Source of the DNA: Escherichia coli
Lineage (GTDB): Bacteria; Pseudomonadota; Gammaproteobacteria; Enterobacterales; Enterobacteriaceae
Direction: 5' to 3' (one strand)
Assembly: GCF_016903815.1 (NCBI RefSeq)
Contig: NZ_CP069973.1
Length of the DNA: 64,000 nucleotides
The notes beneath the pieces are model-generated. The model worked only from the letters and a program-made list of their open reading frames with translations. It searched no databases and had not been told where the DNA came from. Of this stretch, positions 1,076 to 24,235 are shown one piece after another. Every line of letters starts with the position of its first letter. Position 1 is the first letter of the stretch. Both the position numbers and the translations under genes were made by a program.

Positions 1076-2614
1076 TTATTCTGAAGCGAGAAATTTGTCG
1101 AGATAAGGTACAACATAAGGAACAGAAGTCTGGAATATACCATTTTCAATCCAGTAAAGGGTGTTTGCCCCTGGGCGTAAATTAAAGGCGGTGAGATATG
1201 CATCAGCTGCTTCCCGGTTCATCCCCTTCATTTCATAAACCTTGCCAAGCAATACATAATTTAGCCAGGACATTTCAAGATCAATGCCAGTATTTATCGC
1301 CTGATAAGACTCATCTGTTTTACCTTTTACCAGAGCACTGACCGCTTTTATTTGATATATAATGGACAGGTTATTCAATTCCGGTAGTGTAACAATGTTA
1401 TCTATTTCTGTGTTCAGTGCTGCTAATTGTTTTTCATCTAAAGGATGTTGAGAATGGCGCACGATATCAACTAATGCTTTTTCTGCTCTCGCGTAGGTAA
1501 ATTCTGGGGATGATTGAACAATCTCACCTAATAATTCACTGGCACGGTTCAATGATTTATCATCGCCATGCAGTAAATAATCATGTGCCTGATAAAAATT
1601 AGTTAATAACGCACCACGATGAGGCAAAATTTGCTGGAGCATCTCCTGCATTCGTTGTGGCCACGGTTGGTTTAACGCTTTTGATAAACTCTCCAGTAAA
1701 TCATTTTGAATCGCCAGCTGATTACCGTTAGTGATGACATAACGTTTATCCAGCATGGTTGAACCATCTGCATTGTCTACCAATTTTACCGACATAAAGC
1801 ATTGTTGAGCACGGTATTGGCGCTGATTAACAAACGCAATAGATAATGTTTTACCGGAACTGCTCGGTTCATCAATGTTGTAGTTGATTTTGTCATGCAC
1901 CATAAAGGTGGAGAAGGTGTTAAGTGATGTCGCCACCAAATCACCCACGCCTATCGCGTAAGAGAGCTGATACGGGGAACTCCAGCTGTTACAACTTTTA
2001 TTTACCATATTAATGTCAATATCGCGTGGATTGAGCAAAATACGCGATTTGCTCATCGGAAGACGTGTATCAAGACTTGAAAACGCTACCAGTGCTACAC
2101 AGATACCTAACGACAACAGGAAAAAAAACCATACCCAAAAGGTAGTGAATCGTTTGCTTTTAACTGGGGATTGTTCAGGTGGCGTTGCGGTGTTTTGAAT
2201 GTTAAGACTGTGGGAGGGAGAATCTGTGTCAGGAACCGCCTCTGGTATAGGGGGAGGCGAAGATAGCATTATTTCCTCTCCCTCTTCTTCGCTGTACCAG
2301 ATAACCGGCACCATTAATTTATAGCCGCGCTTTGGTACAGTAGCGATATAGACAGGACTATCTTCATCATTATCTTTTAATGACTTACGTAGTTCTGAGA
2401 TACTCTGCGTCACAACGTGATTGGTGACAATACTTCTCTTCCAGACATTATCGATAAGTTCATCCCTGCTAAGTACTTCGCCACTGTGTTGAGCAAAGAA
2501 AACCAGAAGATCGATTAATCTCGGCTCAAGGGTAAGTTGACGCCCATTGCGGCTAATTTGGTTTATGGACGGAGTAACAAGCCATTCGCCAACGCGAACT
2601 ACAGGTTGTTGCAT
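1076..2614 (-). CDS. cadC: Transcriptional activator CadC (ToxR-like membrane-bound regulator), 512 aa
   Basis: ORF translation MQQPVVRVGEWLVTPSINQISRNGRQLTLEPRLIDLL... matches remembered E. coli CadC across its length. Confidence 0.97.
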   Translation of the reverse strand: MQQPVVRVGEWLVTPSINQISRNGRQLTLEPRLIDLLVFFAQHSGEVLSRDELIDNVWKRSIVTNHVVTQSISELRKSLKDNDEDSPVYIATVPKRGYKLMVPVIWYSEEEGEEIMLSSPPPIPEAVPDTDSPSHSLNIQNTATPPEQSPVKSKRFTTFWVWFFFLLSLGICVALVAFSSLDTRLPMSKSRILLNPRDIDINMVNKSCNSWSSPYQLSYAIGVGDLVATSLNTFSTFMVHDKINYNIDEPSSSGKTLSIAFVNQRQYRAQQCFMSVKLVDNADGSTMLDKRYVITNGNQLAIQNDLLESLSKALNQPWPQRMQEMLQQILPHRGALLTNFYQAHDYLLHGDDKSLNRASELLGEIVQSSPEFTYARAEKALVDIVRHSQHPLDEKQLAALNTEIDNIVTLPELNNLSIIYQIKAVSALVKGKTDESYQAINTGIDLEMSWLNYVLLGKVYEMKGMNREAADAYLTAFNLRPGANTLYWIENGIFQTSVPYVVPYLDKFLASE

Positions 2615-3189
2615 AATAGAAACTCATTCGAAAAGGGAATGATGCAATGATAATTGCCACAACCTATTTTTACCATCTATAGATGGTTTTATTTACATAT
2701 TATTGGTGAATGCAAGACGTTATTTTTACCAGCCATAAACTTCTTGATTACATAGTATTACGAAAGGATTTTACTGAGAACCAGAAGTAATATTCCTTAT
2801 CATCAAAATTCATCATCTTTGCCAAAGAAAAATGTTCAGAAAATAATCCATGGGAAATTGCCCGGCGCGCTTACTATTTTTATGGATTGTTAGTCTTTGC
2901 ATGAGCAAGCGGACTGATACATTTCTCTTTGTTCTCATTCAGAAAATCTCATCAGTCGGCGTTCAGACCGGTGTTGTGCTTTATGGATGCGTTACGCTCC
3001 TGATGACGTCATTTGACATTCAACAGCATCACGGGGTCGCACGACATTTCACGTCAGTCAGCGCTATAGCTCAGGAACAAATTTTCCCGAATTGGGATAT
3101 ACCCGCAAAATGCTGGTGTTGTGGGGAGAATTTGGTTGAGTTCGGTAGAAATGATTTTTAGGCAGAACGCTTAAATTGTGGCGTCCTGA

Positions 3190-3221
3190 AACGAAAAACG
3201 GACCTCCGTGGAGGTCCGTTT
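3190..3221 (-). terminator. Stem-loop (AAACGGACCTCC / GGAGGTCCGTTT) with T-rich tail on minus strand; likely the tRNA-Phe terminator
   Basis: Perfect 12-bp inverted repeat at 3196..3207 and 3210..3221 read directly from sequence. Confidence 0.5.
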
Positions 3222-3230
3222 ATATGAATT

Positions 3231-3252
3231 TGGTGCCGGACTCGGAATCGAA
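3231..3252 (-). repeat. 22-nt copy of the tRNA-Phe 3' end (island attachment-site direct repeat), not a full tRNA
   Basis: tggtgccggactcggaatcgaa is the reverse complement of the tRNA-Phe 3' end (GGTTCGATTCCGAGTCCGGGCACCA) with one C missing; homology stops after 22 nt. Confidence 0.7.
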
Positions 3253-3362
3253 AATTTCTTTTATCATATTGATATTAATCTGATTTGTTTGGTTTGATTA
3301 AAAATGTACCCTCAATTATACCCGCAGTCCCTTTTGATATCGAAAGGGAATCACACTCGGGA

Positions 3363-4205
3363 TCAGGCTGAGAGCACAGAAGGAAAGTGCCTGACTATTA
3401 TATCGTTAATTCTGTCAATCAGTTCCAGCCTTTTGAAAGTGATGTGTGCAGATCCCTTCTTAAAGTATTTAATGATAAACATTTCGTCTTCATAGTACTC
3501 TTTACCCTGAACAGACCGGATATGCTCATCCAGACGAATTATGATATTTTCCCGGTTGTCGGGAGTGGGGATGCCACTGAAGAGATGCAGCATCCTTTCC
3601 AGGTCGGCAACCCGGTCAGTCTGTGGTCCGGTGATAAGATGAAATCCCCACCGGCCCCATCTCACCAGATTGTTGACGATAATTTTACTGCCAAATTTAC
3701 AGGGAGAGTTGGTTTTATAATTCCAGCTCAGTCCCCTGAAGACGTTAATCACTCCCCGCTCAAACACCTCATCCTTATTCTGGTGCAGTTGTTCAAATGT
3801 GCTCATAATGTTCGCTTCACTGATTTCCGGAAAATTATCGTACTCCAGTGACCGGTACCATGTATCACGGGTCTGCGCATCCATTAATGACAGCATCCCG
3901 GAGCGTTGCATCAGGTCACGCCAGATTTCACGGTCAAGGTTGCGGGTAATGGCTTTCATTGCCGTTTCAGGTTTCTCCATGAGCCAGCAGCCGCAGCGAA
4001 AATCCTGTTTCATGGCCCAGTCCAGTGCGGTTTTACCGCCAATACTTTCTGTCATTGCTGAGATTTCAGCCAGTTGCCGGATAAGTATGTCGATTTGCAA
4101 CAGTGTACTCTTTCGTACAGCCAGAATGTGGCTGACTGAGGTTGAGCAGATAACGTCCGTATGTCCGTTGACCACTTCCGGACGGGAGACTGTGATTTCA
4201 GACAT
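3363..4205 (-). CDS. Hypothetical protein, DUF4942-like, last gene of the CP4-like module
   Basis: 280-aa ORF directly downstream of the YeeW-like gene; family assignment from memory only. Confidence 0.45.
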   Translation of the reverse strand: MSEITVSRPEVVNGHTDVICSTSVSHILAVRKSTLLQIDILIRQLAEISAMTESIGGKTALDWAMKQDFRCGCWLMEKPETAMKAITRNLDREIWRDLMQRSGMLSLMDAQTRDTWYRSLEYDNFPEISEANIMSTFEQLHQNKDEVFERGVINVFRGLSWNYKTNSPCKFGSKIIVNNLVRWGRWGFHLITGPQTDRVADLERMLHLFSGIPTPDNRENIIIRLDEHIRSVQGKEYYEDEMFIIKYFKKGSAHITFKRLELIDRINDIIVRHFPSVLSA

Positions 4206-4289
4206 AATCGTTTTTCCTTTTTGCAGATAAATGAAAACGCCAGCCCTGTTCAGGCTGGCGTCAGTGGAATGAAGTATGGTGAGTAATAT

Positions 4290-4712
4290 TTACCGGTTCT
4301 GGTGCAGAAGCTGCAGTTGGCGCAGGGTATGGATATCTTCCCTGGCCTGTTCAATGCAGGGCAACAGTGCTGCCGAATCCGTTTTATCCTCATCGTTGTC
4401 GAAGATAATCCCCGATTCGCAGTCGATATTGTCCTGCAGCCACACAATCAGAATATCCAGCGCCGTTTCTGTGGCTAATGGCATTACGCTCTGTATCACT
4501 GTATTGTCTTCCGGCAACTGATGAGGGCTGGCAGAGGTCGCCGGTGTTTCGGTAGTGACACGCTCATCCACCACGCGGAGTGAATAACCATTTTCCGCGA
4601 CTTTATTAAACAGTTCAGCGAGATTAACACCATCGACGTCAACGACAATGCGCCCCATGTTCAGTGCCTGCACGTTAATGCTGTCGGCTTCCAGCGTCAG
4701 GGCCAGTTTCAT
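4290..4712 (-). CDS. YeeW-like protein
   Basis: N-terminus [31 protein letters not shown] resembles YeeW; 4-bp overlap with the toxin gene. Confidence 0.6.
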
Positions 4713-5086
4713 TGTTTCGCCTCCGGATGCTTCCCCCGGGTAATGTTATTTACCGTTCTGTAGTTGCTGCGGGTCATCAGACCTGTTGCCCGGCGAGCCC
4801 GGAGAATATCAATGCTGTTGATTAACTGCGACGAGGCTCCTGCGCTGAATCCCGGCTGGTCAGTTCGTACCAGTGCGTATTTTTCCACGAGAAAGTTCAC
4901 TGCATCACACAGTGAAATGCCTGCCTCAATATGCTGCTCAATCACGCGTTCATCCACGAACGGTGTGTCATTCAGCGTAAGGCTGTAATGCTGGTCCAGT
5001 AACCGGGTGAGCAGTGTCTGCCAGATGGTGACGGGAGACGGGCAGCACGATACCTCCCGTACATGCGTGTCGGGTAATGTTTTCAT
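4709..5086 (-). CDS. CbtA/YeeV/YkfI-family toxin (type IV toxin-antitoxin)
   Basis: MKTLP...[42 protein letters not shown]... matches the CbtA family. Confidence 0.85.
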
Positions 5087-5175
5087 ACTGAAGATTTTCC
5101 TGATATGCAGAGATAAAAAATGGGACAGTGGTGTGGTGAAAACACCAGGCCGGAGCAGAAGGTTATTCTGGTGGT

Positions 5176-5544
5176 TTACTTTTTCGTTTCAGGTGTCGGA
5201 TAAACAGCCAGATAAACGTAACCACAGGAGCCGAGGGTGTCGGCTTCACAGGTCAGCCCCTTCGCATACAGTGTCACGGTATGCTGATGGCGGGGATTCA
5301 GTTCACCACTGGTGAGCATTAATTTCAGTTGTTTCATCAGCAGCGGAAAGGCCTGGTCCAGAGGGTACGCATCCGCATCTCTGAACCGGCCTCTGTTACC
5401 GGCACGGTCGGCAAGGTAATGCAACCGGTTACCCTCCTGCACCAGACGGGCGCCGAAACAGGGCGTCACTGTGCAGGGTAGTCCCCACCAGGGATGGTCG
5501 TGATTGTCATCGGGATGCGTTGTCCCGGAGAGTGTGTCTGACAC
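5176..5544 (-). CDS. CbeA/YeeU/YfjZ-family antitoxin; probable GTG start at 5544 (the in-frame ORF extends to 5652)
   Basis: [49 protein letters not shown]... matches the CbeA family. Confidence 0.8.
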
Positions 5545-5706
5545 GATAAAATCCTCACAGAAAATCGGTGAATGATAGTTTAACGATGACGGGTCAGCCG
5601 GCGCGCAGACCGGCTTCGGTAAAGGTGTATTCGTTGATGAGCAGGACCTCATCCACAGCGGCGTCTGAGCTCAGCCAGTCGTACTCGTTTTCCGGGTGAC
5701 GGAACA

Positions 5707-5928
5707 TCAGTTCAGGGTGACGCTCATCAGCCGGACATACGGACCAAAACTGTCCTTACGGCGTTCTGCAAACACGGCCAGCACACCGGGAATATCCTGC
5801 ACTTCACGACCGGTATACGCTTCAGCACTGCCGTGCCAGCGGTATTTGCCGGTACAGAACGGAAAAAGACGGGATGCCGGATGCTGACGGTGAATACGCA
5901 TGGCTTCGCCACGGGTGATGATTTTCAT
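5707..5928 (-). CDS. DUF987 protein (YeeT-like), 73 aa
   Basis: MKIITRGEAMRIHRQHPASRLFPFCTGKYRWHGSAEAYTGREVQDIPGVLAVFAERRKD matches YeeT; start at internal Met of the 109-aa ORF. Confidence 0.8.
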   Translation of the reverse strand: MKIITRGEAMRIHRQHPASRLFPFCTGKYRWHGSAEAYTGREVQDIPGVLAVFAERRKDSFGPYVRLMSVTLN

Positions 5929-5992
5929 AGTGGGATACCTCTGAAGACAGAAGATAAAAGTGAAAACAGGTGTGATGTGTGGTTGTGACGGG

Positions 5993-6469
5993 TTAAAGCA
6001 GACCATGTTCGGCAAAGGAGAAAACCTGGCTGCCACCGACTATCAGATGGTCCGGCACCCGGATATCCACCAGGCCCAGTGCCTGTACCAGACGTTCCGT
6101 GATAAGGCGGTCTGCCTTGCTGGGTGTGACTTCACCGGACGGGTGATTGTGTGCCAGCACCACAGCAGCGGCATTGTGATACAGGGCGCGTTTAATCACT
6201 TCCCGGGGATGGACTTCCGTGCGGTTGATGGTGCCGGTGAAGAGGGTTTCACCGGCAATCAGCTGATTCTGGTTATTCAGATACAGCACCCGGAATTCTT
6301 CACGCTCCAGTCCCGCCATGTTCAGAATCAGCCATTCCCGTGCCGCACGGGTGGAGGTGAAGGCCACGCCGGGTTCATGAAGATGGCGGTCCAGGGTTTT
6401 CAGGGCCCGCTGAATGAGACTGCGCTCGCCGGGCGTCATCGCTCCGGGCAGAAAGGAAATCTGTTGCAT
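5993..6469 (-). CDS. RadC-like JAB-domain protein (YkfG/YfjY/YeeS family)
   Basis: HNHPSGEVTPSKADRLITERL motif (JAMM/RadC). Confidence 0.85.
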   Translation of the reverse strand: MQQISFLPGAMTPGERSLIQRALKTLDRHLHEPGVAFTSTRAAREWLILNMAGLEREEFRVLYLNNQNQLIAGETLFTGTINRTEVHPREVIKRALYHNAAAVVLAHNHPSGEVTPSKADRLITERLVQALGLVDIRVPDHLIVGGSQVFSFAEHGLL

Positions 6470-6484
6470 TGTTCCTGCCCCCTT

Positions 6485-6964
6485 TCAGTCAATGATGCGC
6501 ATAATGGCGTCGTATTCCGGATGTTGCAGGGCGTAATCCCGCAGCCGGTAATAATGGACCGTCATGGCATAATTCTCCGTACGACAGGCATGATGACTGT
6601 ATGCCATCAGACAGGCTGCAATGCCGGCGGCTTCCGGACTCATTTCAGCGCGGTTACCGTTCATGGCATTGAACAGTACCCATGTTTCGTCATCATCGTC
6701 ATCCGGTTCGGGGGCCATAAATGCGCCACCGTTGTTCAGGGTGTACAGATTCCAGATGCCCCCGCAGTAGTCTTCGCACAGACGGTCCATCCAGCCGAAG
6801 ACACGGGGCTCCAGGGTCACCCACTGTGGAATGAGGCCAAAATGCTGCGGCCAGAAGCTGATACGTTGTTCATCAGGGACGGGAGTAGCAACCAGTTGGG
6901 GCTGGTTATTCCCTGGTGCTGTGGCTGAAGAAAGAGCAGTTGTGTTCTGAGAAACGATTTTCAT
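6485..6964 (-). CDS. Antirestriction protein, KlcA/ArdB family (YafX/YfjX-like)
   Basis: Acidic DDDDDE stretch and conserved C-terminus; start taken at internal Met (MKIVSQNTTAL). Confidence 0.75.
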   Translation of the reverse strand: MKIVSQNTTALSSATAPGNNQPQLVATPVPDEQRISFWPQHFGLIPQWVTLEPRVFGWMDRLCEDYCGGIWNLYTLNNGGAFMAPEPDDDDDETWVLFNAMNGNRAEMSPEAAGIAACLMAYSHHACRTENYAMTVHYYRLRDYALQHPEYDAIMRIID

Positions 6965-7229
6965 GAGTGAAATCCTTACAATGTGTATAAATGAGAGGAA
7001 ATAAAGGCCGGGGGCTGACAACATCACGTTCATCACTGACCGTGAGACCCGGCAATATCAGGGATGAATGATATTCGGCTGAAATTCCGGACAGCCGTAC
7101 GCGTAACCGTTCCGGTCACAGACGGATGGCCAGAAGATGCCATTGCCTGTACTCAGTCTGCACAGACTGAGTTCTCCGGGGCGTCGGGTGATTCTGGTGC
7201 CTGAATCACGCCTTCAGGGACAGATTGCA

Positions 7230-8048
7230 TCAGCGCAGGCTCTCCAGTAGCGTTTCTGCCATCACCCACAATGCGCGATTGAGCTTAATGTCGGTGTCGA
7301 TGCTGTGAATGGCACGGGTGTGGATACGTTTTCCTCTGGCACTGCGACCGGAAATTCCGCCTTTCAGCATATTCTCCTGGATGGTCTGATAAGTACTCCA
7401 CAGGTCCTTACCGTAATCCTCCCGGCGTCGTGGCGTCAGAATGTCGGTAGTGGTGACGGGCTGATGTTCATCACCATAACGGTAAGTCAGCGCCGCCTGT
7501 GCCAGCGCCTGGCGTGCCGGTGGCGGCAGGACCAGCGACTGCATGGCATCACGCTTTTCCTCAATCCGGTCAAACACGCCCACCACTTCGTAAGCACCTT
7601 CTATGACCCTGTCCACCACGTTTCCCCGGTGTGGCACCCGGACTTCTCCCAGCGACTGACCGCAGACCAGGCCATTGGTACAAATGGCACGAAAATATCC
7701 GGGTAACATCTGGTAGCTGGATGAACCGTCATGGGAGTTGAGCAGAATAATTTCAGGCACATGCTGACCGGTTATCTGTCCGGCCCGCCGCAGACGCAGC
7801 ATATGTTTGGTATATTCCCGGCGGCTCTGGTCGCGCACACGGGTCTGGCAGGCGAAGAACGGCTGAAAGCCTTCCCGCTGCAGATTTTCCAGGACGGTGA
7901 TGGTGGGAATGTACGCATACCGTTCACTGCGGGAGGTGTGCCGGTCTTCTCCAAAAATACTCGGGACGTGGTACATCAGTTCTTCGCGTGTCAGTGGGCG
8001 CTCCCGACGGATCTGATTTACATGACCAAAACGACTGGCTAATTGCAT
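7230..8048 (-). CDS. DUF932 protein (YafZ/YfjQ-like)
   Basis: 272 aa at the expected position in a CP4-like gene order. Confidence 0.7.
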   Translation of the reverse strand: MQLASRFGHVNQIRRERPLTREELMYHVPSIFGEDRHTSRSERYAYIPTITVLENLQREGFQPFFACQTRVRDQSRREYTKHMLRLRRAGQITGQHVPEIILLNSHDGSSSYQMLPGYFRAICTNGLVCGQSLGEVRVPHRGNVVDRVIEGAYEVVGVFDRIEEKRDAMQSLVLPPPARQALAQAALTYRYGDEHQPVTTTDILTPRRREDYGKDLWSTYQTIQENMLKGGISGRSARGKRIHTRAIHSIDTDIKLNRALWVMAETLLESLR

Positions 8049-8137
8049 ACTTTGCTCCTTATGAATGAATTAGCGGTATAAACGAAAAGGCCGCGTCTCC
8101 CGGAGAAGACGCGGCCTGATGGATGAAATGAAGACGT

Positions 8138-8371
8138 TTATTGCCTGAGAATTCCCTCACTGGCGAGGTACGAATTTAGCTGTTTTCCGGCGTCAGACTC
8201 AAAATTCCAGCACCGCCAGCGTAGCTGCCCTTCGGCATTGCGGATAACCAGCAGGAAATGCGTTCCATGGTCATCTTCAATAAGCACATTGCGGTAAGCT
8301 GTTGTGGCAGCCATTGCCTGTTTGCGTGAGAAAGGGCCTTCGGGCAATAAAACAGGGTGACAGTCCGACAT
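8138..8371 (-). CDS. Small hypothetical protein (77 aa)
   Basis: ORF in operon context between the lipoprotein and DUF932 genes. Confidence 0.45.
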
Positions 8372-8376
8372 ACCGG

Positions 8377-9054
8377 CTATTTTCCGATAAATTCAACGCT
8401 GGCACTGGTGGCATTACCGTCAGCACCAACCGTGACGGTCACTTTGTCGTACGCACGGTCTTCAGGATTGAATACTTCAAACTCAACCTTATTGCCTTTT
8501 ACTTCGTAAGAGCCAAAATCAGCGGTTTCTGTTGTTTCCTCGTCATATTCCCGGGCGTATGCCTGCCGGGCAGCCTGCAGGACGGAGTCTTTATTAATAG
8601 TGGTCGTCTGTTTCGGGGAAAAACCGGCAAGTGATGTGACAAATTTCGGACAGACCTTCAGCATATCACCGCGGGTGAATTCCATTCGTACACCAAATGC
8701 CTGTAAAACGGACACATCACGCTCTGCTATGGAGTGAACGGCTTTTTTGACCATTTCCGGCGCCTGTCCGATTTCCACCTCAACAGCCCTGAATCCCGTC
8801 TGCTGATTACACATTTGTGATGTGGGGATCAGGTTACCGTTAATACTGATACGGCTGCCCAGGAGCGTCTGTACGCCATTCGGGCATCCCTGCATCAGGC
8901 CGGTAATACCAATCGTGCCATTTTTCAGCATTACCAGCGCCTGACCATCTTCCGTCATGGTCTGACACCAGCCGTTTTTGACAGCCCAGTTGCCGGCGGA
9001 GGCGGAGAATGATGCCACAGTGAACAGCAGGGGAAAAAGAGCTCTGGTATTCAT
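8377..9054 (-). CDS. Putative lipoprotein (YafY/YfjS-like)
   Basis: Signal-peptide-like N-terminus [21 protein letters not shown] from internal Met; start codon at 9052..9054. Confidence 0.6.
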
Positions 9055-9201
9055 GACTGACCTCTGAAATGAACGTACGGTGTTATTGATAATGATGGAA
9101 GGTATGCAGTGACTGTTCAGGGAATGACGTAGCCGTATATTTAGTTTTCTGTTCAACATATTGTCTCCATACCTGTCGGGACGGCTTTGGCAGGCCGGCG
9201 A

Positions 9202-9882
9202 TCACAGGTTAAAGGTGTTGATAAGTTTATGGATGAAAGAGAAATGTGGCAGGGCGGAGATAAAACGCTCTTCAGCGACCAGACTGTGGATGTGGCCTCT
9301 CCGTTCAAACCGTTCTGATGTCAGGCTGACTGATTTGATATCTGCCAGAGGAAAGACCTGCAGTTTTCCCTTCTGTAACGCGATCAGATACCAGCTACCG
9401 CTGTAATAAATGAGCCGGCAGGGCTCCAGTGACGGATACCATCGCTCAGTCATCAGAGAGATGTGGATACACTGTCTTATTGCCAGGATGAGTTGCGAGA
9501 AACACTCGGGGAACGTTGCAGTGATATTCGGCGCCGGTAGCCAGATAAGGCAGGGAGAGGGCTCCTGGTTGTCGGTAAGACAGGTTATCAGTCGTCCGTT
9601 CCGGAGCGGAAGTATCCGTGCGATCCCGGTATTCTGTATAAAAGAAAGCATTTCAGGGATCGCACCTGGGCTGCTCTGTCGTCTGAGGCTGTACCTGCCA
9701 TTTCTGTACTCTAAATCCAGGTGAACCAGACGCTGATGAAAATCGCGCTGTAAAGTACGTTCTGTAACGCCAAATTCATCTGACAGTGCTTTTAGTGACA
9801 GAGATTCTCCGGCCATCAGTCGGCTGATAATGAGTGATAAGCGAACCGCCAGGCGATCATGCCGGGAACGATTATCAGACAT
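9202..9882 (-). CDS. HTH plus WYL-domain transcriptional regulator (YfjR-like)
   Basis: N-terminal HTH (LSLKALSDEFGVTERTLQRDF) and a C-terminal SWYLIA motif. Confidence 0.65.
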   Translation of the reverse strand: MSDNRSRHDRLAVRLSLIISRLMAGESLSLKALSDEFGVTERTLQRDFHQRLVHLDLEYRNGRYSLRRQSSPGAIPEMLSFIQNTGIARILPLRNGRLITCLTDNQEPSPCLIWLPAPNITATFPECFSQLILAIRQCIHISLMTERWYPSLEPCRLIYYSGSWYLIALQKGKLQVFPLADIKSVSLTSERFERRGHIHSLVAEERFISALPHFSFIHKLINTFNL

Positions 9883-10084
9883 AGATGTGCACTCCGTAAG
9901 AAAACATCTTTTATTTCATGATGTTATTATGCCTCATGGTGTTGAAAGGATGTGTCGTATCTGAATAATCAGGAATAAAATGCAGCAGAAAAAATATTCC
10001 TTTAATTATCTGATTTTTAATGATGATTTCATAAAAAGAAGAATACTCATTAATCCAGCGACACATCCTGTCGGCGTGAGTGTG

Positions 10085-10969
10085 TCAGAACAGACGATCC
10101 CACAGTGTTTCTAGCAGGCGGATAATGCGGTCCCGGGCTTTACGCAGAAGCTGTAACATCCAGACCGGAAAAGTGAACCGGGCAACGGCGTCGTCAAAAC
10201 TTTTCCCGATGGCGTCACCAAAAGTCTGTTGTGCGTGTTTCTGGGCCTGTTCAGAGCGGTTTTCCCCCCGGATATGTGAATAAACCGCACTGGTTGCCTG
10301 CGGTGGCAGGGCGTGGATCATCAGCGACACAAACGCCGGAAGATTCCAGCCGACAGGCGCAGCAACGGGGAGTACCGGAAATGATGACGGGAACAGGGTT
10401 GCCACCCTGGCTGTAACAGTTGCCAGTGAGAGTTCCTGGTGACGGGATGGGCATTTTTCTGTGGCATTCCATTCTTCAGCAGGAAACACGCGATCGGCAT
10501 GGCTGAGAACAAACAGAAAACGCGAGGGATCTGCACCTTCATTCAGTAAAAACTGATGCATGGCAATATCGGCAGCATACGCACGTTCATCAGCCCGCAG
10601 GATCCAGATAATCAGATCCAGTTCCGGCAGTAACTGACGGTAAAGCTCCCGGTATTCCTGATCATGCTGCGGTGTCTCACCAATGCCGGGCAGATCGACC
10701 AGCGTCATTCTGCGTTCACCAATCTGCAGGGTGAGGCGATGAGCCTGGCGGGTGCAGCCGTTCAGGGGATGCGTGGCGCAGATACGGGACTGAAAAATGG
10801 CATTACACAGACTGCTTTTGCCGGTGCCGGATTTACCCATAATGCCAATCACGGGCTCGTAATGAATAACACCGTGGAGATGTTCAAGGATTTTCTGGCG
10901 AATTTCTTCAGGAAGAAACGTCAGATATGATTTCACTTGCGCGGAGAGGGAAGAATTGCTGAATGGCAT
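10085..10969 (-). CDS. GTPase of the YeeP/YkfA/YfjP family
   Basis: P-loop GKSGTGKSS and DLPGIGE motifs. Confidence 0.85.
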   Translation of the reverse strand: MPFSNSSLSAQVKSYLTFLPEEIRQKILEHLHGVIHYEPVIGIMGKSGTGKSSLCNAIFQSRICATHPLNGCTRQAHRLTLQIGERRMTLVDLPGIGETPQHDQEYRELYRQLLPELDLIIWILRADERAYAADIAMHQFLLNEGADPSRFLFVLSHADRVFPAEEWNATEKCPSRHQELSLATVTARVATLFPSSFPVLPVAAPVGWNLPAFVSLMIHALPPQATSAVYSHIRGENRSEQAQKHAQQTFGDAIGKSFDDAVARFTFPVWMLQLLRKARDRIIRLLETLWDRLF

Positions 10970-11069
10970 ACCGGTATCCTGTTGATTTCACTGAACCGGA
11001 TCACACTAATCCGGTTTATCATTCAGGTAATATGGGTGTGAAAATTTTTCCATTGACGGGAAGAAGAGT

Positions 11070-12293
11070 ATGGCTAAAAACAAAGGTATCTGTCGGAATA
11101 AAAAATGCAGTAATCCTGTTTCAGAATTTGATGAGGCAAATGCCTTAAGGTTATGCGATGATCATTATAAGCTATGGAAGCGAAATAAAGAGAATCGTCG
11201 GGTCAGGAATATTTGTCGTATAATTAGTAGATATGACAAAAGTCTGGACTGGGAGATATTTTATAGAGTAAGAGATGCTGCAAAAAATAAAACGGGAAAG
11301 AGAATTATTGAGGACGCAAAAATATTACATCAATGGCGTGCTTCAAAGCAAGTAAGAAAAAGTTTTCACAAGGGTGTGCTTCGGTCACGGGAATGGCTTA
11401 ATACACAGGAGTTACTGAGCAGAAAACATATATCTGTTACAGGTGAACTATTTAAATTTTACATAAAAGATATTATCAGATTATATTGCTATAAGTTTCT
11501 CTACAGCAGAGAATATCTTAATGAAAACGCATACAAAAAACGATATCAGAGAGATATTCACCCCAGAAAAGTTAATGTTCCGATACTGCAACTTGAAGTT
11601 GCATGGATAAATAATAATTGCCGCTCAAGTGATTCAAGCACTGATATTATTATCCTTCCGAGGATGATAAGAAGAATGGTTGTATTTAATTATACGAAGA
11701 TAAATAAACAATTAGAGAAAGTGTTGGGGGGGATAGCACGAAAACAAACCTCAGAAAGAAATAAAGGCGGTCTCTATACCAGAATAAAAAAAGAAAGTGA
11801 CTTTCTTTCTATGGATAGATTTATGGTGGAAATAGAAAATATCATAAGACCTGAAAGGTTTCCTACATCAATTTATCCAGTCTTTTCACATTCATTTATT
11901 GAACGAGAGCTTCCGCTACTGAATCTTGCTCGATCACAGTATAAAAGAGCAATAAGTAAAAGAGTGGCGAATTCAATTTTTTATACTTTGCAAAAAACTA
12001 ACGTGGCATTATGGCTATATCTTGAAATGTTTGCTCTGGTGGCATTCATTAAACTGTATACAGGAAAAGGTTTTGAATTCATAAAGAACATGTGTGTATT
12101 TATCGATTATGAGAAAGGGATAATAAAATCCACACATGAAGAACTGCTGGGTGAAATTAAGCGTAACATTCAAGTGAATTTGAAGGTGAATCCTGATAAT
12201 TTTCCAGAGTTAATAGACATATACAATTCATGCTTTAGTGAAAATATATTGTCATATGATATTCAGGATGGTAATTTTAAATGGCGCTCATGA
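11070..12293 (+). CDS. Hypothetical 407-aa protein with Cys-rich N-terminus (C-x4-C ... C-x2-H), AT-rich gene
   Basis: Long uninterrupted ORF in a markedly AT-rich segment; no family recognised. Confidence 0.6.
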   Translation: MAKNKGICRNKKCSNPVSEFDEANALRLCDDHYKLWKRNKENRRVRNICRIISRYDKSLDWEIFYRVRDAAKNKTGKRIIEDAKILHQWRASKQVRKSFHKGVLRSREWLNTQELLSRKHISVTGELFKFYIKDIIRLYCYKFLYSREYLNENAYKKRYQRDIHPRKVNVPILQLEVAWINNNCRSSDSSTDIIILPRMIRRMVVFNYTKINKQLEKVLGGIARKQTSERNKGGLYTRIKKESDFLSMDRFMVEIENIIRPERFPTSIYPVFSHSFIERELPLLNLARSQYKRAISKRVANSIFYTLQKTNVALWLYLEMFALVAFIKLYTGKGFEFIKNMCVFIDYEKGIIKSTHEELLGEIKRNIQVNLKVNPDNFPELIDIYNSCFSENILSYDIQDGNFKWRS

Positions 12294-13455: not shown

Positions 13456-13986
13456 TTAAGCTACATTGTTGTTATGACTGACAGGATTGTTTTCTTCCCC
13501 TGACTCTGGGCTTAACAGTCCCTGGCGTTGTAGATATTCACTGACTGACATTCCAGAACTACGGATCCTGTCAGAGATTTTACGAAATTGATCCTTCCAT
13601 TCTGCAGGTAATTTCTTAATTTGTCTGACTTTACAGGCTACACTGTACGGGGTTCGCCCTAGTTTCTCTGCTAGCCAGAAAAGGTGTTTACCAATTTCAT
13701 CGTCCGGTACATCCTCCAGAACATCTCGCAATAAACTCTCGTCTGCCTCATTCCATGCCACACCAGCATTTGGGAAACGAGGATCGATCTCTCTTTCCTT
13801 CTTCTCCTTCTTACTTTGCTCTTTTCGGGATGATACAGATACGACAGAACGTTCTTTTACCGCTGTAATTGCCATAACTGCATTGAGCAGAGATCTGCGC
13901 TCCACATCGTTCAGCATTTTTCCTTCACAGATCAAATCATTCAGGATGTCAATGACTAGATTCAGACTTTCTTCTGTTAGCTTCAT
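13456..13986 (-). CDS. Hypothetical 176-aa protein with Lys/Glu-rich linker
   Basis: ORF in AT-rich block; no family recognised. Confidence 0.5.
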   Translation of the reverse strand: MKLTEESLNLVIDILNDLICEGKMLNDVERRSLLNAVMAITAVKERSVVSVSSRKEQSKKEKKEREIDPRFPNAGVAWNEADESLLRDVLEDVPDDEIGKHLFWLAEKLGRTPYSVACKVRQIKKLPAEWKDQFRKISDRIRSSGMSVSEYLQRQGLLSPESGEENNPVSHNNNVA

Positions 13987-14655: not shown

Positions 14656-15387
14656 ATGAATCAACCAATACACAATGATTACTGGTTATCCCGTTTTGAA
14701 AGTATTCTCAACAGTGCCCTGGTGCAACACCGTGCCGTCTCGTTAATCCGGGTGGATTTACGTTTCCCTGAGTATATGCCTGTCACCATCATGGATCCCG
14801 ATCCGGATTCAGCGGTGATTTCCCGTTTTTTCGCATCCCTGAAAGCCAAAATTCAGGCTTACCAGCGGAAAAAAAGATGGGCCAATCAGCGTGTGCATGC
14901 AACCAGCCTGCGTTATTTCTGGTGCCGGGAGTTCGGCAAGATGTATGGCAGGAAACATTATCACGTGATATTACTGCTCAACAAAGATACCTGGTGCTCG
15001 CTCGGGGATTTCAGCGAACCGTCTTCGCTGGCGACGATGATCCAGGAGGCATGGTGCAGCGCCCTGCATCTTGAGCCCTGGCAAGGCGATGGCCTGGTCC
15101 ATTTTTCCAGGTGGACGCCTTCCCGTAAACCGACATCGTCTGATGCTCGCCCTTCTTCCGATGACACGCCTTTGTCGGGTGGATGTTCTGATACCAGGAA
15201 GGCTTCAGACAAAAAGCCAGGTGAAGCCGCTGTGCTCTGGATCAAGCGTGGTGATGTGGAAGCGCTGCAGAAAGCCCGGAACAGAGCCAGTTATCTCGTG
15301 AAATATGAGACGAAGCAGCATGACGGTTCCGGGCAACGTAATTATGGTTGCAGTCGTGGGCCGGGGCGTCTACTGGATGGCAGGTGA
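14656..15387 (+). CDS. YagK/YfjJ-family protein (Inovirus Gp2-like)
   Basis: N-terminal region resembles YfjJ/YagK of cryptic prophages; from memory. Confidence 0.5.
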   Translation: MNQPIHNDYWLSRFESILNSALVQHRAVSLIRVDLRFPEYMPVTIMDPDPDSAVISRFFASLKAKIQAYQRKKRWANQRVHATSLRYFWCREFGKMYGRKHYHVILLLNKDTWCSLGDFSEPSSLATMIQEAWCSALHLEPWQGDGLVHFSRWTPSRKPTSSDARPSSDDTPLSGGCSDTRKASDKKPGEAAVLWIKRGDVEALQKARNRASYLVKYETKQHDGSGQRNYGCSRGPGRLLDGR

Positions 15388-16895: not shown

Positions 16896-17831
16896 ATGTG
16901 TGATAAGGAATACATCATCACAATTGGCTCTGCCAATATAGATATAGCCGGATATTCGTATGCCTCCTTAAATTATGCTGATTCTAACCCGGGGAAGATT
17001 AAATTCACGCCCGGAGGTGTGGGGCGTAATATTGCACATAATCTTGCTCTGCTGGGTAAAAACTCATGGCTGATGTCAGCTGTGGGAGATGATTTCTACG
17101 GGCAATCATTATTAGCACAAACGACTCAGTCCGGCGTTAATGTTGATAAATGTCTGATTGTTAATGGAGAAAATACCTCAAGTTATTTATCACTTCTCGA
17201 TAAAACCGGTGAAATGTTGGTGGCAATAAATGACATGACGATTAGTGAACATATTTCAGCTGAGTTTTTATCACAGCATATTGATTTTATTCAGGGAGCG
17301 AAGGTTATTGTTGCAGACTGTAATATCAGTGAGTCAACACTTGTCTGGCTACTGAATAATGCAGGTAAGGTTCCGGTATTTGTTGACCCGGTATCTGCAT
17401 GGAAGTGTGTCAAAATTCGTGAACATTTAGCACAAATTCATACTCTCAAGCCCAACCGGCTTGAAGCAGAAACACTCAGTGGTATTTCGCTTTCAGATCG
17501 GAATGATGCTGAAAAAGTGGCGGTATGGTTCCATACACATGGTCTGAATCGCCTTGTGCTCAGCATGGGGGGGGATGGAGTTTATTACAGCGAACTGTAC
17601 GGAGCCAGCGGCTGGTCGCCGCCAGTAAAAACACAGGTGGTGAACGTTACGGGGGCAGGGGATGCCATGATGGCAGGGCTGGCTTCCTGCTGGGTTGATA
17701 ATATGCCATTTATTGATTCCATTCGATTTGCACAGGGGTGTTCATCAATGGCGCTGGCCAGTGAGTATACCAATAATCCTGAATTATCTGTTGCTAACGT
17801 TAAAAGCTTAGTGGAGAAACAGAATGTCTGA
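16896..17831 (+). CDS. psuK: PfkB-family kinase, pseudouridine kinase-like (YeiC/PsuK paralog)
   Basis: GGVGRNIAHNLALLG and GAGDAMMAG motifs; ATG at 16896 preceded by AGGAGA. Confidence 0.75.
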   Translation: MCDKEYIITIGSANIDIAGYSYASLNYADSNPGKIKFTPGGVGRNIAHNLALLGKNSWLMSAVGDDFYGQSLLAQTTQSGVNVDKCLIVNGENTSSYLSLLDKTGEMLVAINDMTISEHISAEFLSQHIDFIQGAKVIVADCNISESTLVWLLNNAGKVPVFVDPVSAWKCVKIREHLAQIHTLKPNRLEAETLSGISLSDRNDAEKVAVWFHTHGLNRLVLSMGGDGVYYSELYGASGWSPPVKTQVVNVTGAGDAMMAGLASCWVDNMPFIDSIRFAQGCSSMALASEYTNNPELSVANVKSLVEKQNV

Positions 17832-18759
17832 AATAACCATTTCTTCTGAATTACTGCAAATTTCACCGGAAGTACAGGATGCCATTAACAGTAAAAAACC
17901 TGTTGTTGCTCTCGAGTCAACAATTATCTCACATGGTATGCCTTTTCCTCAGAATGCTCAGACGGCTATTGAAGTCGAAGAAACTATACGTAAACACGGA
18001 GCAGTACCAGCCACCATTGCCGTTATTGGCGGTGTAATGAAAGTCGGGTTAAGTAAAGATGAGATTGAATTACTGGGTCGCGAAGGACATAACGTTACCA
18101 AAGTCAGTCGCCGGGATTTACCTTTCGTTATTGCTGAAGGAAAACATGGTGCAACAACGGTAGCTTCAACCATGATTATTGCTGCTCTTGCCGGAATTAA
18201 AGTTTTTGCCACAGGAGGAATTGGCGGCGTTCATCGCGGTGCAGAACACACTTTTGATATTTCAGCCGACCTACAGGAACTGGCACATACTAATGTCACC
18301 GTGGTTTGTGCAGGCGCGAAATCCATTCTCGATTTAGGGTTAACCACGGAATATTTAGAAACATTTGGTGTACCTTTAATTGGCTATCAGACAAGATCAT
18401 TGCCGGCATTTTTTTGCCGCACCAGTCCGTTTGAGGTCAGTATACGTCTGGACAGTGCAAAAGAGATTGCCCGCGCGATGGCAGTGAAATGGCAAACCGG
18501 CCTGAACGGTGGTCTGGTTGTTGCCAATCCGATTCCGGAAGCTTACGCCATGGCGGAAGAGAAAATTAATGCAGCAATTGACCAGGCCGTAAAAGAAGCG
18601 GAAGTGCAGGGCATTACCGGTAAAGAAAGCACACCGTTCCTGCTGGCACGGGTGGCAGAATTAACCGGTGGTGACAGTCTGAAATCAAATATTCAGCTGG
18701 TATTCAACAACGCAGTTCTGGCCTGTGAGATAGCAAAAGAATATCAACAAATTGTCTGA
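17824..18759 (+). CDS. psuG: Pseudouridine-5'-phosphate glycosidase-like (YeiN/PsuG paralog)
   Basis: 311 aa resembling YeiN; overlaps psuK stop by 8 bp. Confidence 0.75.
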   Translation: MSEITISSELLQISPEVQDAINSKKPVVALESTIISHGMPFPQNAQTAIEVEETIRKHGAVPATIAVIGGVMKVGLSKDEIELLGREGHNVTKVSRRDLPFVIAEGKHGATTVASTMIIAALAGIKVFATGGIGGVHRGAEHTFDISADLQELAHTNVTVVCAGAKSILDLGLTTEYLETFGVPLIGYQTRSLPAFFCRTSPFEVSIRLDSAKEIARAMAVKWQTGLNGGLVVANPIPEAYAMAEEKINAAIDQAVKEAEVQGITGKESTPFLLARVAELTGGDSLKSNIQLVFNNAVLACEIAKEYQQIV

Positions 18760-18842
18760 TATAAATGAACGGGCAGTGTGAGGTCGCCCGAAATTACCTG
18801 AACCAGATTCCGTGTCTGGTTCAGGTATAAGGGGAGAGCATT

Positions 18843-20093
18843 ATGGACATCATGAGAAGTATAGTGGGAATGGCAGTATTGCTGATAATTGCATTTCTAC
18901 TATCAGTGAATAAAAAACGTATCAGTTTACGTACCACAGGAGCTGCACTGGTTCTTCAAATCGCGATTGGTGGGATCATGCTCTATTTCCCCCCGGGGAA
19001 ATGGCTGGTTGAACAGGCTGCACTGGGCGTACATAAAATTATGTCTTACAGTGATGCGGGCAGTGCCTTTATTTTTGGCTCTCTGGTAGGGGACAAAATG
19101 GACGTACTGTTCGATGGGGCGGGTTTTATCTTCGCCTTCCGTGTACTTCCTGCCATCATTTTTGTTACAGCGCTTATCAGTCTGCTGTACTACATCAGAG
19201 TGATGGGGGGGCTTATCCGTATTCTGGGGGGGATTTTTCAGAAAGCTCTGAACATAAGTAAAGTTGAGTCATTTGTGGCAGTAACGACAATTTTCCTGGG
19301 GCAAAACGAGATCCCGGCAATTGTAAAACCGTTTATTAATCGTCTGAATCGTAATGAATTATTTACTGTCATCTGCAGTGGGATGGCTTCGATTGCCGGT
19401 TCAATGATGATCGGCTATGCCGGGATGGGGGTTCCGATTGACTATTTGCTGGCGGCGTCGTTGATGGCGATCCCGGGGGGGATCCTTTTTGCCCGTATTC
19501 TGAGTCCGGCCACAGAAGAATCAAAAGTCACTTTTGAAAATCTTTCTTTCACTGATACTCCTCCCAAAAGTGTTATTGAAGCAGTGGCCAGCGGGGCGAT
19601 GACCGGGTTGAAAATCGCTGTCGGAGTTGCAACGGTAGTGATGACCTTTGTTGCTATTATTGCTCTGATTAACGGTATAATCGGTGGTATCGGAGGCTGG
19701 TTTGGTTATGGTAATATTACCCTTGAGGGCATTTTCGGCTGGATTTTGGCTCCCCTTGCGTGGATCATGGGCGTTGACTGGGCGGATGCTTCACTGGCAG
19801 GAAGTCTGATTGGTCAGAAGCTGGCAATTAACGAATTTGTTGCTTATCTCAATCTTTCACCCTATTTACAGCCAGGCAGTACGCTTGATGTGAAAACCAC
19901 CGCAATTATTTCTTTTGCACTGTGTGGTTTTGCCAACTTTGGCTCCATTGGTGTGGTGGTGGGTGCCTTTTCAGCCATATCACCTCAGCGTGCACCTGAA
20001 ATTGCACAACTGGGCATGCGTGCACTGGCGGCGGCCACCCTGTCAAACCTGATGAGTGCGACTATCGCTGGTTTTTTCATTGGGCTGGCATAA
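18843..20093 (+). CDS. psuT: Concentrative nucleoside transporter (NupC family, PsuT-like)
   Basis: 416-aa polytopic membrane protein with NupC-like sequence. Confidence 0.75.
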   Translation: MDIMRSIVGMAVLLIIAFLLSVNKKRISLRTTGAALVLQIAIGGIMLYFPPGKWLVEQAALGVHKIMSYSDAGSAFIFGSLVGDKMDVLFDGAGFIFAFRVLPAIIFVTALISLLYYIRVMGGLIRILGGIFQKALNISKVESFVAVTTIFLGQNEIPAIVKPFINRLNRNELFTVICSGMASIAGSMMIGYAGMGVPIDYLLAASLMAIPGGILFARILSPATEESKVTFENLSFTDTPPKSVIEAVASGAMTGLKIAVGVATVVMTFVAIIALINGIIGGIGGWFGYGNITLEGIFGWILAPLAWIMGVDWADASLAGSLIGQKLAINEFVAYLNLSPYLQPGSTLDVKTTAIISFALCGFANFGSIGVVVGAFSAISPQRAPEIAQLGMRALAAATLSNLMSATIAGFFIGLA

Positions 20094-20102
20094 AAAATAC
20101 AA

Positions 20103-21206: not shown

Positions 21207-21643
21207 GATTATGCAACTGCCTGTTCGGTTTTTCGTCAGCGATCATCAAAGTAAATAGCTTCGTTTTTCCCGGTGAACGTGAAGCTAGGGGAGATTATAC
21301 TTCCAGATGTTCATTCAGGGCAGAAGAATAATACATCAGTTAATTTTCTGTTAGTACTTTGTAGTCGAATGTTTGGGGAGTGTGTCTGAATGACAGCCAG
21401 ATGGAATGACTTTTTGTAGCCAGGTCATGACTACGACTCATACGCTATTCTTAATTCTTATTTCTTTCCATTATACGCAAGTATTTTTAATTTAGGTTTA
21501 TTACTATAATTATATTCACTTTGTCTTTATTCACTCTGTTTTTACTTACTCTCTATCTTTACTCATTCCATTACTCTGACCCTCACCCGATTATACTTAC
21601 TCCCTTCCTTGTCTAATCTTCATTGCCACCATTATCATGGTAT

Positions 21644-21697
21644 CCACCTTCTCCACCTTCTCCACCTTCTCCACCTTCTCCACCTTCTCCACCTTCT
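21644..21697. repeat. Tandem repeat, 9-bp unit CCACCTTCT x 6
   Basis: Counted directly in sequence; lies in a 1.3-kb AT-rich region without a convincing ORF. Confidence 0.9.
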
Positions 21698-24001: not shown

Positions 24002-24235
24002 ATGTTGACCACAACAAGCCACGACAGCGTGTTACTGCGTGCCGACGATCCCCTGATCGACATGAACTACATCACCAGTTTCACCGGTATGACCGATAAA
24101 TGGTTTTACAAGCTGATCAGTGAAGGTCATTTCCCTAAACCCATCAAACTGGGGCGCAGCAGCCGCTGGTACAAAAGTGAAGTGGAGCAGTGGATGCAGC
24201 AGCGAATTGAGGAATCACGAGGAGCAGCAGCATGA
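24002..24235 (+). CDS. alpA: AlpA-family phage regulatory protein (MerR-like HTH)
   Basis: MNYITSFTGMTDKWFYKLISEGHFPKPIKLGRSSRWYKSEVEQW matches the AlpA pattern. Confidence 0.75.
   Translation: MLTTTSHDSVLLRADDPLIDMNYITSFTGMTDKWFYKLISEGHFPKPIKLGRSSRWYKSEVEQWMQQRIEESRGAAA

Follow-up and report, generated by a model that had tools for sequence, protein, structure and literature searches.

The window, a 64,000-nucleotide stretch of the Escherichia coli chromosome with cadC at its start, carries a block of 12 minus-strand open reading frames (ORFs) between positions 3363 and 10969, all confirmed in position. A GTPase gene lies at one end, followed by a separate unit encoding an HTH-WYL regulator, a secreted cysteine-containing protein and a DUF905 protein. 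Genes for DUF932, KlcA/ArdB antirestriction, RadC-like JAB-domain and DUF987 proteins then lie upstream of a toxin-antitoxin pair, and a DUF4942 gene occupies the island edge. Pfam and K-12 BLASTP matches agree with the families named in the initial annotation, and its reading of the block as a module of the CP4-44/CP4-57/CP4-6 type that includes a CbtA/CbeA pair and an HTH-WYL regulator is borne out by both family scans and K-12 BLASTP. At the level of sequence matches, the identity of the block is unambiguous.

That reading turned on the similarity of two products to the CbtA and CbeA families, which proved decisive. The toxin (4709-5086, 125 aa) covers the whole Pfam CbtA_toxin model (E = 1.6e-60), is 84% identical to K-12 CbtA by BLASTP, conserves F65 and has Cys15 as in YkfI and YpjF; for homologues, inhibition of FtsZ and of MreB is reported to be separable via F65 and R15 (PMC5624674). 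The CbeA/YeeU-family antitoxin (5176-5544, 122 aa, within ORF 5176-5652) matches Pfam CbeA_antitoxin (E = 7.6e-52) and is 89% identical to K-12 CbeA by BLASTP, with PDB relatives that include 2H28 (YeeU; E = 3.9e-74). The GTG start of the antitoxin gene had been singled out; the codon at 5544-5542 is indeed GTG and the PGAP start is identical, but there is nothing peculiar in it, as K-12 cbeA also starts with GTG behind the same GAGGA ribosome-binding site and such a start is the family norm. cbeA lies upstream of an intact cbtA, with a spacer of 89 nt versus 88 nt in K-12. By analogy with the K-12 homologues, the toxin would block assembly of FtsZ and MreB, and the antitoxin would counteract it without binding it (type IV). 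Toxicity has been reported for YkfI and YpjF, with YafW and YfjZ neutralizing them; what CbtA-type pairs do physiologically is a matter of debate, with oxidative-stress and biofilm effects among the reported phenotypes (PMC5371832).

The genes upstream of the pair belong to equally familiar families. A YeeT-like DUF987 protein (5707-5928, 73 aa, within ORF 5707-6036; Pfam E = 5e-40) is 97% identical to YeeT, and a RadC-like JAB-domain protein of the YeeS/YkfG/LfgB type (5993-6469, 158 aa; Pfam RadC E = 1.4e-44) is 99% identical to YeeS and 78% to LfgB (YfjY). The KlcA/ArdB-type antirestriction protein (6485-6964, 159 aa, within ORF 6485-7036) matches Pfam Antirestrict (E = 1.2e-35) and the PHROG ‘anti-restriction protein’ (E = 2.2e-62), and shares 69% identity with YafX and YfjX. 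The DUF932 protein (7230-8048, 272 aa; Pfam E = 1.6e-49) is 74% identical to YfjQ and YafZ, and the YkfF-like DUF905 protein (8138-8371, 77 aa; Pfam E = 9.4e-27) is 56% identical to YkfF.

Between the DUF905 gene and the regulator gene lies an ORF for a 225-aa secreted protein (8377-9054). It had been labelled a lipoprotein, an identity that we reject: the sequence lacks a lipobox, its signal peptide ends ASA|GN, and searches of Pfam, NCBIfam, PADLOC, PHROG and PDB sequences returned no match. Four cysteines (C30, C57, C82 and C135) are invariant among its relatives, which were found only in Enterobacteriaceae, and an AF2 model (pLDDT 78) gave no significant PDB fold match. The regulator itself (9202-9882, 226 aa) is an HTH-WYL protein of the YfjR/YafY family with Pfam HTH_11 and WYL domains (WYL, 23.7 bits against a cut-off of 21.8), a match to the PADLOC WYL profile (E = 2.4e-18), and 43% BLASTP identity to YfjR and 66% to the ykfK pseudogene fragment. 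The gene is present as annotated, but the remark that some islands have none at this place was given too much weight: K-12 has counterparts in YfjR and the ykfK pseudogene, and presence varies ordinarily among islands (absent in Klebsiella locus L007, present in Citrobacter locus L009). Upstream of the regulator gene (9944-10073, minus strand), two inverted copies of GACA-N5-TGTC (10059-10073 and 9944-9957), found as inverted repeat I23, flank an AT-rich promoter region. They are the only matches in the window with zero or one mismatch, and both copies are conserved together with a CATAAT box in the diverged loci L009 and L012, marking the pair as a putative operator. Judging by gene content and layout, these two sites are probably where the WYL regulator binds to repress the three-gene unit to which it belongs. 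ChIP-exo saw no DNA binding by K-12 YfjR (PMC8464067), so the role of the regulator is still only predicted.

The GTPase (10085-10969, 294 aa) is of the YeeP/YkfA/YfjP type (Pfam MMR_HSR1 E = 4.5e-15, Dynamin_N E = 1.7e-10) and 35% identical to YfjP by BLASTP. The PADLOC LeoBC profile gives a weak match to its C-terminus (E = 4e-7), which bears on whether the main role of the block is defence against phages, with CbtA/CbeA causing abortive infection and the GTPase serving as a dynamin-like defence component. The CRISPR association of the PADLOC WYL profiles and the presence of anti-phage or toxin-antitoxin systems (abpAB, rnlAB) among the neighbouring genes in CP4-57 point the same way. PADLOC, however, returned no match for the toxin, antitoxin, DUF932, RadC, DUF905, DUF987, DUF4942 or secreted proteins, and a counter-defence gene, the antirestriction gene, is more in keeping with an invading element than with a host defence island; we regard a primarily defensive role as unlikely.

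At the other end of the block, the ORF whose start overlaps the cbtA stop by 4 nt (4290-4712, 140 aa) had been called YeeW-like. Its N-terminal part does belong to DUF5983 (YeeW), with the match to Pfam DUF5983_N confined to residues 4-57 (E = 1.3e-28), but the ORF as a whole is an in-frame fusion to DUF957: alignment with the intact O6 island L006 indicates that a deletion of ~280 bp removed the DUF5983 C-domain. PGAP splits this stretch into a DUF5983 pseudogene and a gene for a 64-aa DUF957 protein. The last gene of the island encodes a DUF4942 protein (3363-4205, 280 aa; Pfam E = 9.4e-64) that is 56% identical to the product of the same-position gene in Citrobacter, matches the N-terminal half of a phage DNA methyltransferase family in PHROG (E = 1.2e-13) and has no solved relative in the PDB. 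A terminator scan placed an intrinsic terminator on the minus strand at 4236-4262 (11-bp stem, 7 G-C pairs), closing the DUF932-to-toxin unit and conserved in sequence in L006, and another at 8088-8117 (13-bp stem, 9 G-C pairs), closing the unit of regulator, secreted protein and DUF905; these strong terminators suggest that the block comprises four transcription units.

The island boundary is a distal att repeat at 3233-3254 (no strand assigned), TGGTGCCGGACTCGGAATCGAA, read directly from the window and compared with the pheU sequence of an essentially identical genome; its 22 bp equal the 3′ end of pheU (tRNA-Phe) minus one C. On the minus strand the repeat is directly followed by the native pheU terminator hairpin (3196-3221; 11-bp stem, then a T-run), which lies on the chromosomal side, outside the island. 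From their positions in the essentially identical genome, pheU and a P4-type integrase lie ~14 kb past the window end and ~75 kb from the distal repeat. The window itself equals strain 7/2 except for a difference of ~36 bp at a 9-bp tandem repeat. A genuine, possibly inducible, P4-like satellite prophage would account for the integrase, which is 36% identical to IntA, for the AlpA and YagK/YfjJ homologues in the island and for the ‘CP4’ name in K-12 nomenclature. Yet the PGAP annotation of the 75 kb includes no capsid, tail, terminase, P4 alpha primase or Psu/Delta/Sid gene, and the cargo is metabolic (pseudouridine utilization, a glycyl-radical propanediol microcompartment and an amino-acid decarboxylase/antiporter set), making such a prophage very improbable. 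‘Cryptic prophage’, the term used in the initial annotation, is a historical K-12 name; because no phage structural gene is annotated in the whole island, ‘integrase-type genomic island’ is the better label.

Among the K-12 islands, the distal segment of CP4-44 (yeeP ... yeeS-yeeT-cbeA-cbtA-yeeW) is closest by sequence in YeeS, YeeT, CbeA and CbtA, and shares with the window the cbeA start and ribosome-binding site, the cbeA-cbtA spacing, the 4-nt cbtA/yeeW overlap and a truncated YeeW. In CP4-44, by contrast, flu (Ag43) and yeeR separate the GTPase remnant from yeeS, the integrase has been lost, and there are no genes for a WYL regulator, DUF905, DUF932, antirestriction or DUF4942 (PMC5371832); the copy in the window is thus more complete. 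CP4-57 (yfjP-yfjQ-yfjR ... lfgA-lfgB-ypjJ-yfjZ-ypjF) and CP4-6 (ykfA-yafZ ... yafX-ykfG-ykfH-yafW-ykfI) share with it the GTPase, DUF932, HTH-WYL regulator (YfjR or the ykfK remnant), DUF905, antirestriction, RadC, DUF987, antitoxin and toxin families, and likewise have the block at the integrase-distal island end, adjoining an att repeat. The families are therefore those of the CP4 islands, as proposed, but the order is not identical: DUF932 directly follows the GTPase in CP4-57 and CP4-6, whereas in the window it follows DUF905. In these two islands the slot of the unrelated 225-aa secreted protein holds the lipoprotein YfjS/YafY plus YfjT/YkfB, the toxin-antitoxin spacer is 20 nt, the toxin and antitoxin are only 60-66% identical to those of the window, and DUF957 and DUF4942 are lacking.

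Parts of the island may be decaying, because the DUF5983 gene is truncated and PGAP annotates many IS fragments, pseudogenes and partial genes throughout. Together with the loss of several members to pseudogenes in K-12 (yeeP, ykfK, ykfL, ypjI), this could suggest that the block is an inert relic, intact only through recent island acquisition and contributing nothing to island or host fitness. However, 11 of the 12 ORFs are full length against Pfam family models, Citrobacter and Klebsiella retain the same gene order and intact frames with measured protein identities of ~56-70%, which implies purifying selection, and non-coding elements (terminator, operator-like repeats) are conserved as well. 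A relic is accordingly improbable.

We consider it highly likely that the block is the conserved distal arm of a ~75 kb P4-integrase-type (‘CP4-like’) island inserted at the pheU 3′ end next to cadC, with the roles proposed here. Gene content and layout suggest that it is the island, not the host, that the block serves: the toxin-antitoxin pair would penalize island loss, and after transfer to a new cell the antirestriction protein, with its companions, would help the element to become established. Antirestriction genes cluster with toxin-antitoxin genes in the establishment regions of transferable elements, and the anti-defence islands in the leading regions of conjugative plasmids likewise combine a KlcA/ArdB-type gene, a toxin-antitoxin pair and small genes of uncharacterized function in one orientation (Samuel et al. 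2024, PMC11541004). In contrast to those regions, the block lies within an integrase-type island of the chromosome, and oriT, relaxase, ssb and psiB were not seen here; the likeness is one of working logic, by analogy, not of family membership. Because neither a transfer origin nor a relaxase or conjugation gene was identified, ‘establishment after transfer’ is drawn from the plasmid analogy.

The block is a real but ordinary example of a well-known, widely shared module common at the distal end of many E. coli genomic islands: 1,436 of 5,426 complete E. coli genomes hold at least 80% of it in one place. PGAP already annotates it in complete E. coli genomes, and identically in the essentially identical genome. 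Beyond the interval originally delimited, divergent from the GTPase gene, a plus-strand gene (11070-12293) encodes a 407-aa orphan-family protein with invariant C8, C13, C29 and H32. Family scans returned no match and a profile search only 43 relatives. This gene adjoins the GTPase gene in L007, L009, L011 and L012 and, in loci further removed, genes for AlpA or WYL proteins; on these adjacencies, it is a conserved backbone neighbour of the block.

The block at 3363-10969 (12 ORFs, all on the minus strand) is, judged by its sequence, a member of the module family found in the K-12 islands CP4-44 (yeeP to yeeW), CP4-57 (yfjP to ypjF) and CP4-6 (ykfA to ykfI). Every ORF listed in the initial annotation exists on the minus strand and carries the family named for it, save for the label given to 8377-9054 and a partial DUF5983. 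Pfam recognizes an MMR_HSR1 GTPase (10085-10969), an HTH_11 plus WYL regulator (9202-9882), DUF905 (8138-8371), DUF932 (7230-8048), Antirestrict (6485-6964), RadC (5993-6469), DUF987 (5707-5928), CbeA_antitoxin (5176-5544), CbtA_toxin (4709-5086), DUF5983_N (4290-4712) and DUF4942 (3363-4205). In BLASTP of the module products against proteins taken from NC_000913.3, identities were 99% to YeeS, 97% to YeeT, 74% to YfjQ/YafZ, 69% to YafX/YfjX, 56% to YkfF and 35% to YfjP. CP4-44 is closest in sequence and CP4-57 closest in gene content. The gene order proposed as that of the three K-12 islands fits the same module family, but the position of DUF932 does not: in CP4-57 and CP4-6 it directly follows the GTPase, whereas in the window, as in a Citrobacter locus (L009), the WYL gene follows the GTPase and the antirestriction gene has DUF932 directly upstream of it. 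The product of that antirestriction gene matches the full PF03230 model (E 1.2e-35) and a PHROG anti-restriction family (E 2.2e-62), as expected of a KlcA/ArdB family member, with activity against type I restriction a prediction only. What is probably a decayed small gene persists in the spacer that separates DUF932 from this gene: a fragment (7070-7183, minus strand) 50% identical over 38 amino acids to an 86-aa gene in the same position in the Citrobacter locus. The block is already known, being annotated by PGAP and containing a toxin-antitoxin pair studied in K-12. As a discovery it matters little; its re-examination corrects labels that would otherwise be copied forward, namely a 'lipoprotein', a GTG start treated as unusual and a supposedly intact YeeW.

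The CbtA/CbeA pair was confirmed, the products of 4709-5086 and 5176-5544 both showing similarity to their K-12 family members in BLASTP. The toxin covers positions 1-112 of the 112-position model PF06755 (E 1.6e-60) and is 84% identical to K-12 CbtA; the antitoxin matches PF06154 (E 7.6e-52), is 89% identical to K-12 CbeA and matches the solved structures of YeeU (2H28) and YfjZ in a PDB search. The antitoxin gene lies directly upstream of the toxin gene on the same strand, with an 89-nt spacer. Separable contacts, with FtsZ through F65 and with MreB through R15, let CbtA block both division and elongation of the cell (PMC5624674). F65, which is needed for FtsZ binding (Heller et al. 2017; PMC5624674), is invariant in alignment A1. 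At position 15 the toxin has Cys and K-12 CbtA has Arg, and a natural R15C variant with MreB binding lost was considered. This reading was dropped, as YkfI, YpjF and the homologue in the intact O6 island share Cys15. Because YkfI and YpjF have Cys too, the aligned residues indicate that Arg15 of K-12 CbtA is the exception and that Cys15 here is without special meaning. YkfI and YpjF are toxic and are neutralized by YafW and YfjZ (PMC5371832). The codon at 5544 is indeed GTG, and PGAP uses it as the antitoxin start; its description as a peculiarity does not stand, since K-12 cbeA and the O6 homologue share both this GTG and the (A/G)AGGA ribosome-binding site in front of it, which makes a GTG start the family norm.

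Downstream of the toxin gene, the 140-aa ORF at 4290-4712 had been called YeeW-like. DUF5983_N does match, but the ORF is not intact and its C-domain is missing. Alignment with the intact serX island L006, where the protein has 162 aa, reveals a ~280-bp deletion that takes out the DUF5983 C-domain, so that the first ~50 codons of DUF5983 run in frame into a DUF957 ORF; over the same stretch, PGAP annotates a DUF5983 pseudogene and a 64-aa DUF957 protein. The short DUF5983 form occurs in several lineages, and K-12 yeeW is similarly truncated.

The label 'lipoprotein', attached to an ORF at 8377-9159, fails. PGAP places the start at 9054, giving a 225-aa protein whose signal peptide ends ASA|GN (signal region, then |GNW), with no lipobox ([LVI][ASTVI][GAS]C) at that end; the first Cys occurs in the context NGWC. 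The protein has no similarity to YfjS or YafY in BLASTP and no match in Pfam, NCBIfam, PADLOC, PHROGs or a PDB sequence search. Its relatives are confined to the Enterobacteriaceae, with at least 55% identity for full-length members and four invariant cysteines. Its AlphaFold2 (AF2) model is of reasonable confidence (pLDDT 78), and Foldseek of the model against the PDB had no hit at E ≤ 0.001; short local matches of NTF2/cystatin type in the C-terminal part were all that it returned. The same slot in the Citrobacter locus (L009, 6788-8083) encodes a 431-aa protein headed by a related N-terminal domain.

The regulator at 9202-9882 scores 22.1 bits for HTH_11, below the cut-off of 25, and 23.7 bits for WYL, above the cut-off of 21.8, and matches PADLOC WYL profiles at E 2.4e-18 and 3.7e-6. 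In BLASTP it aligns along its whole length with YfjR at 43% identity, and it is 66% identical to the ykfK pseudogene fragment; combining HTH and WYL domains as YafY/YfjR-type regulators do, it is identified by similarity as a YfjR homologue. The remark that some islands lack the regulator is true but describes ordinary variation: the gene is present in L009 and in a further related locus, L012, and missing from a Klebsiella locus (L007) and CP4-44. In the AT-rich 202-bp spacer upstream of the regulator gene, the GACA-N5-TGTC palindrome GACAGG(A/T)TGTGTC occurs twice, as inverted copies at 10059-10073 and 9944-9957. Nothing else in the window matches it with 0 or 1 mismatch, and both copies, together with a CATAAT box, are kept in the diverged loci L009 and L012. 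We read the pair as a putative operator of the regulator. For K-12 YfjR, a ChIP-exo study detected no sites of binding (PMC8464067). Apart from this operator-like pair, a repeat search inside the module gave nothing notable, and no Rfam family matched there.

A terminator scan places strong intrinsic terminators at 8088-8117 and 4236-4262 (minus strand), which suggest four transcription units: the GTPase; the regulator, secreted protein and DUF905; DUF932 through the toxin to the DUF5983::DUF957 fusion; and DUF4942. A consensus promoter scan returned 8 sites compared with 10.4 expected in shuffled sequence, so the scan does not locate the promoters. Sequence settles what the block is; how it works is drawn from K-12 homologues and analogy. 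From the K-12 homologues, the toxin would inhibit growth and affect cell shape, and the antitoxin would neutralize it via the toxin's targets rather than the toxin itself. In the early-entering regions of conjugative plasmids, antirestriction genes of the KlcA/ArdB type are found clustered with toxin-antitoxin genes (PMC11541004), and by analogy the block may help the island to establish after transfer and may penalize its loss. The analysis identified no transfer functions, which makes establishment after transfer an inferred step. The block could instead be mainly a defence locus, and PADLOC does give hits to WYL profiles and, at the C-terminus of the GTPase, a weak LeoBC-like one; these are its only matches among the module proteins, and so nearly empty a result argues against defence as the main role.

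The block marks the far boundary of a ~75-kb pheU island with metabolic cargo. The first full-length gene of the window is cadC (1076-2614, minus strand; Pfam domains CadC_C1 and Trans_reg_C). Searched by megablast against 5426 complete E. coli genomes, 2600-11100 had many matches at 100%, one of them in strain 7/2 (NZ_CP023820.1), whose chromosome contains the entire window except for a ~36-bp difference. This sole length difference falls at 21643-21699, in a perfect 9-bp tandem repeat (TCCACCTTC, 6.3 copies) that is probably a variable-number repeat. In strain 7/2 the order is cadA-cadB-cadC, the block, ~70 kb of accessory DNA, a tyrosine integrase by tRNA-Phe, then dicD and dsbD. No tRNA genes were found within the window, and an exact 25-nt pattern search for the pheU 3' end had no match, because the repeat carries a 1-nt deletion: read from the sequence and compared with pheU, the 22 bp at 3233-3254 (TGGTGCCGGACTCGGAATCGAA) are the pheU 3' end minus one C. 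A terminator hairpin (3196-3221, terminator scan) lies on the chromosomal side of this att repeat. The repeat and the hairpin therefore place the block at the far end of a ~75-kb island integrated at pheU.

The integrase, which adjoins tRNA-Phe in this essentially identical genome and outside the window, is of the P4 family and 36% identical to CP4-57 IntA (E 1e-78). The window also encodes a YagK_YfjJ_C protein (14656-15387, plus strand; Pfam E 9.4e-36), a second YagK/YfjJ-family gene (~22530-23100, plus strand) and an AlpA homologue (~24044-24226, plus strand). Two YagK/YfjJ genes with one AlpA suggest that the pheU island combines more than one P4-integrase-type element or is internally rearranged. 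An integrase by a tRNA, a tRNA-3'-end repeat, and AlpA and YagK/YfjJ genes together characterize a CP4-type (P4-integrase) tRNA island, and all are present. Membership of the strict prophage class (P4-like satellites) is not supported, since PGAP annotates no phage or satellite replication, capsid-size or packaging genes across the whole 75 kb, a check that depends on annotation. Of the complete E. coli genomes, 26% have at least 80% of the block in a single place, and four places match at least part of it in the median complete genome, which puts the block among the most often repeated accessory segments in E. coli.

Outside the interval originally described, a low-GC ORF at 11070-12293 (plus strand) encodes a 407-aa protein of no known family in Pfam, NCBIfam, PADLOC or PHROG, and its distant members are without a Pfam domain. 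A profile search of 1.84 billion cluster representatives retrieved 43 relatives at E ≤ 0.001, and C8, C13, C29 and H32 are invariant in the family. In Klebsiella michiganensis, Citrobacter and a metagenome contig, homologues with 32-37% identity take the same position, divergent from the GTPase gene and followed by AlpA and YagK/YfjJ. Counting the window, five close loci were compared: the gene adjoins the GTPase gene in all five and the two diverge in four; one more distant member is co-directional with the adjoining GTPase gene, and still more distant ones adjoin AlpA/DUF3987/DUF932 genes, a WYL gene or an integrase. The AF2 model (pLDDT 56) is too poor to use. The gene sits where CP4-57 has abpAB and rnlAB; variable defence cargo was considered and largely rejected as a description, given homologues in the same backbone position in other genera, and the gene is best described as an uncharacterized backbone gene of these islands. 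Its product could serve a core function of P4-integrase islands, for example excision, replication or transfer control. A broader proposal, that the island backbone is larger and more regulated than annotated, with the 407-aa protein as an unrecognized core function and signal-responsive HTH-WYL control through the GACA-N5-TGTC pair, is tentative and in our estimate rather unlikely.

Between the 407-aa gene and the first YagK/YfjJ gene lies a low-GC gene for a 176-aa hypothetical protein (13456-13986, minus strand), which matches nothing in Pfam, NCBIfam or PADLOC. AlpA holds this position in related islands, and the gene may be inserted cargo. Further into the island are pseudouridine kinase and glycosidase genes with a nucleoside transporter (~16900-20100) and a complete glycyl-radical propanediol-utilization microcompartment cluster (~27500-47900; grpA-grpS in PGAP). 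Rfam detects group II intron elements at ~31960-33660 (minus strand) and ~61270-62880 (plus strand). A degenerate copy, its reverse-transcriptase ORF truncated, lies between grpP and grpO in the propanediol cluster, and the other element is directly downstream of an intact ltrA reverse-transcriptase/maturase gene.
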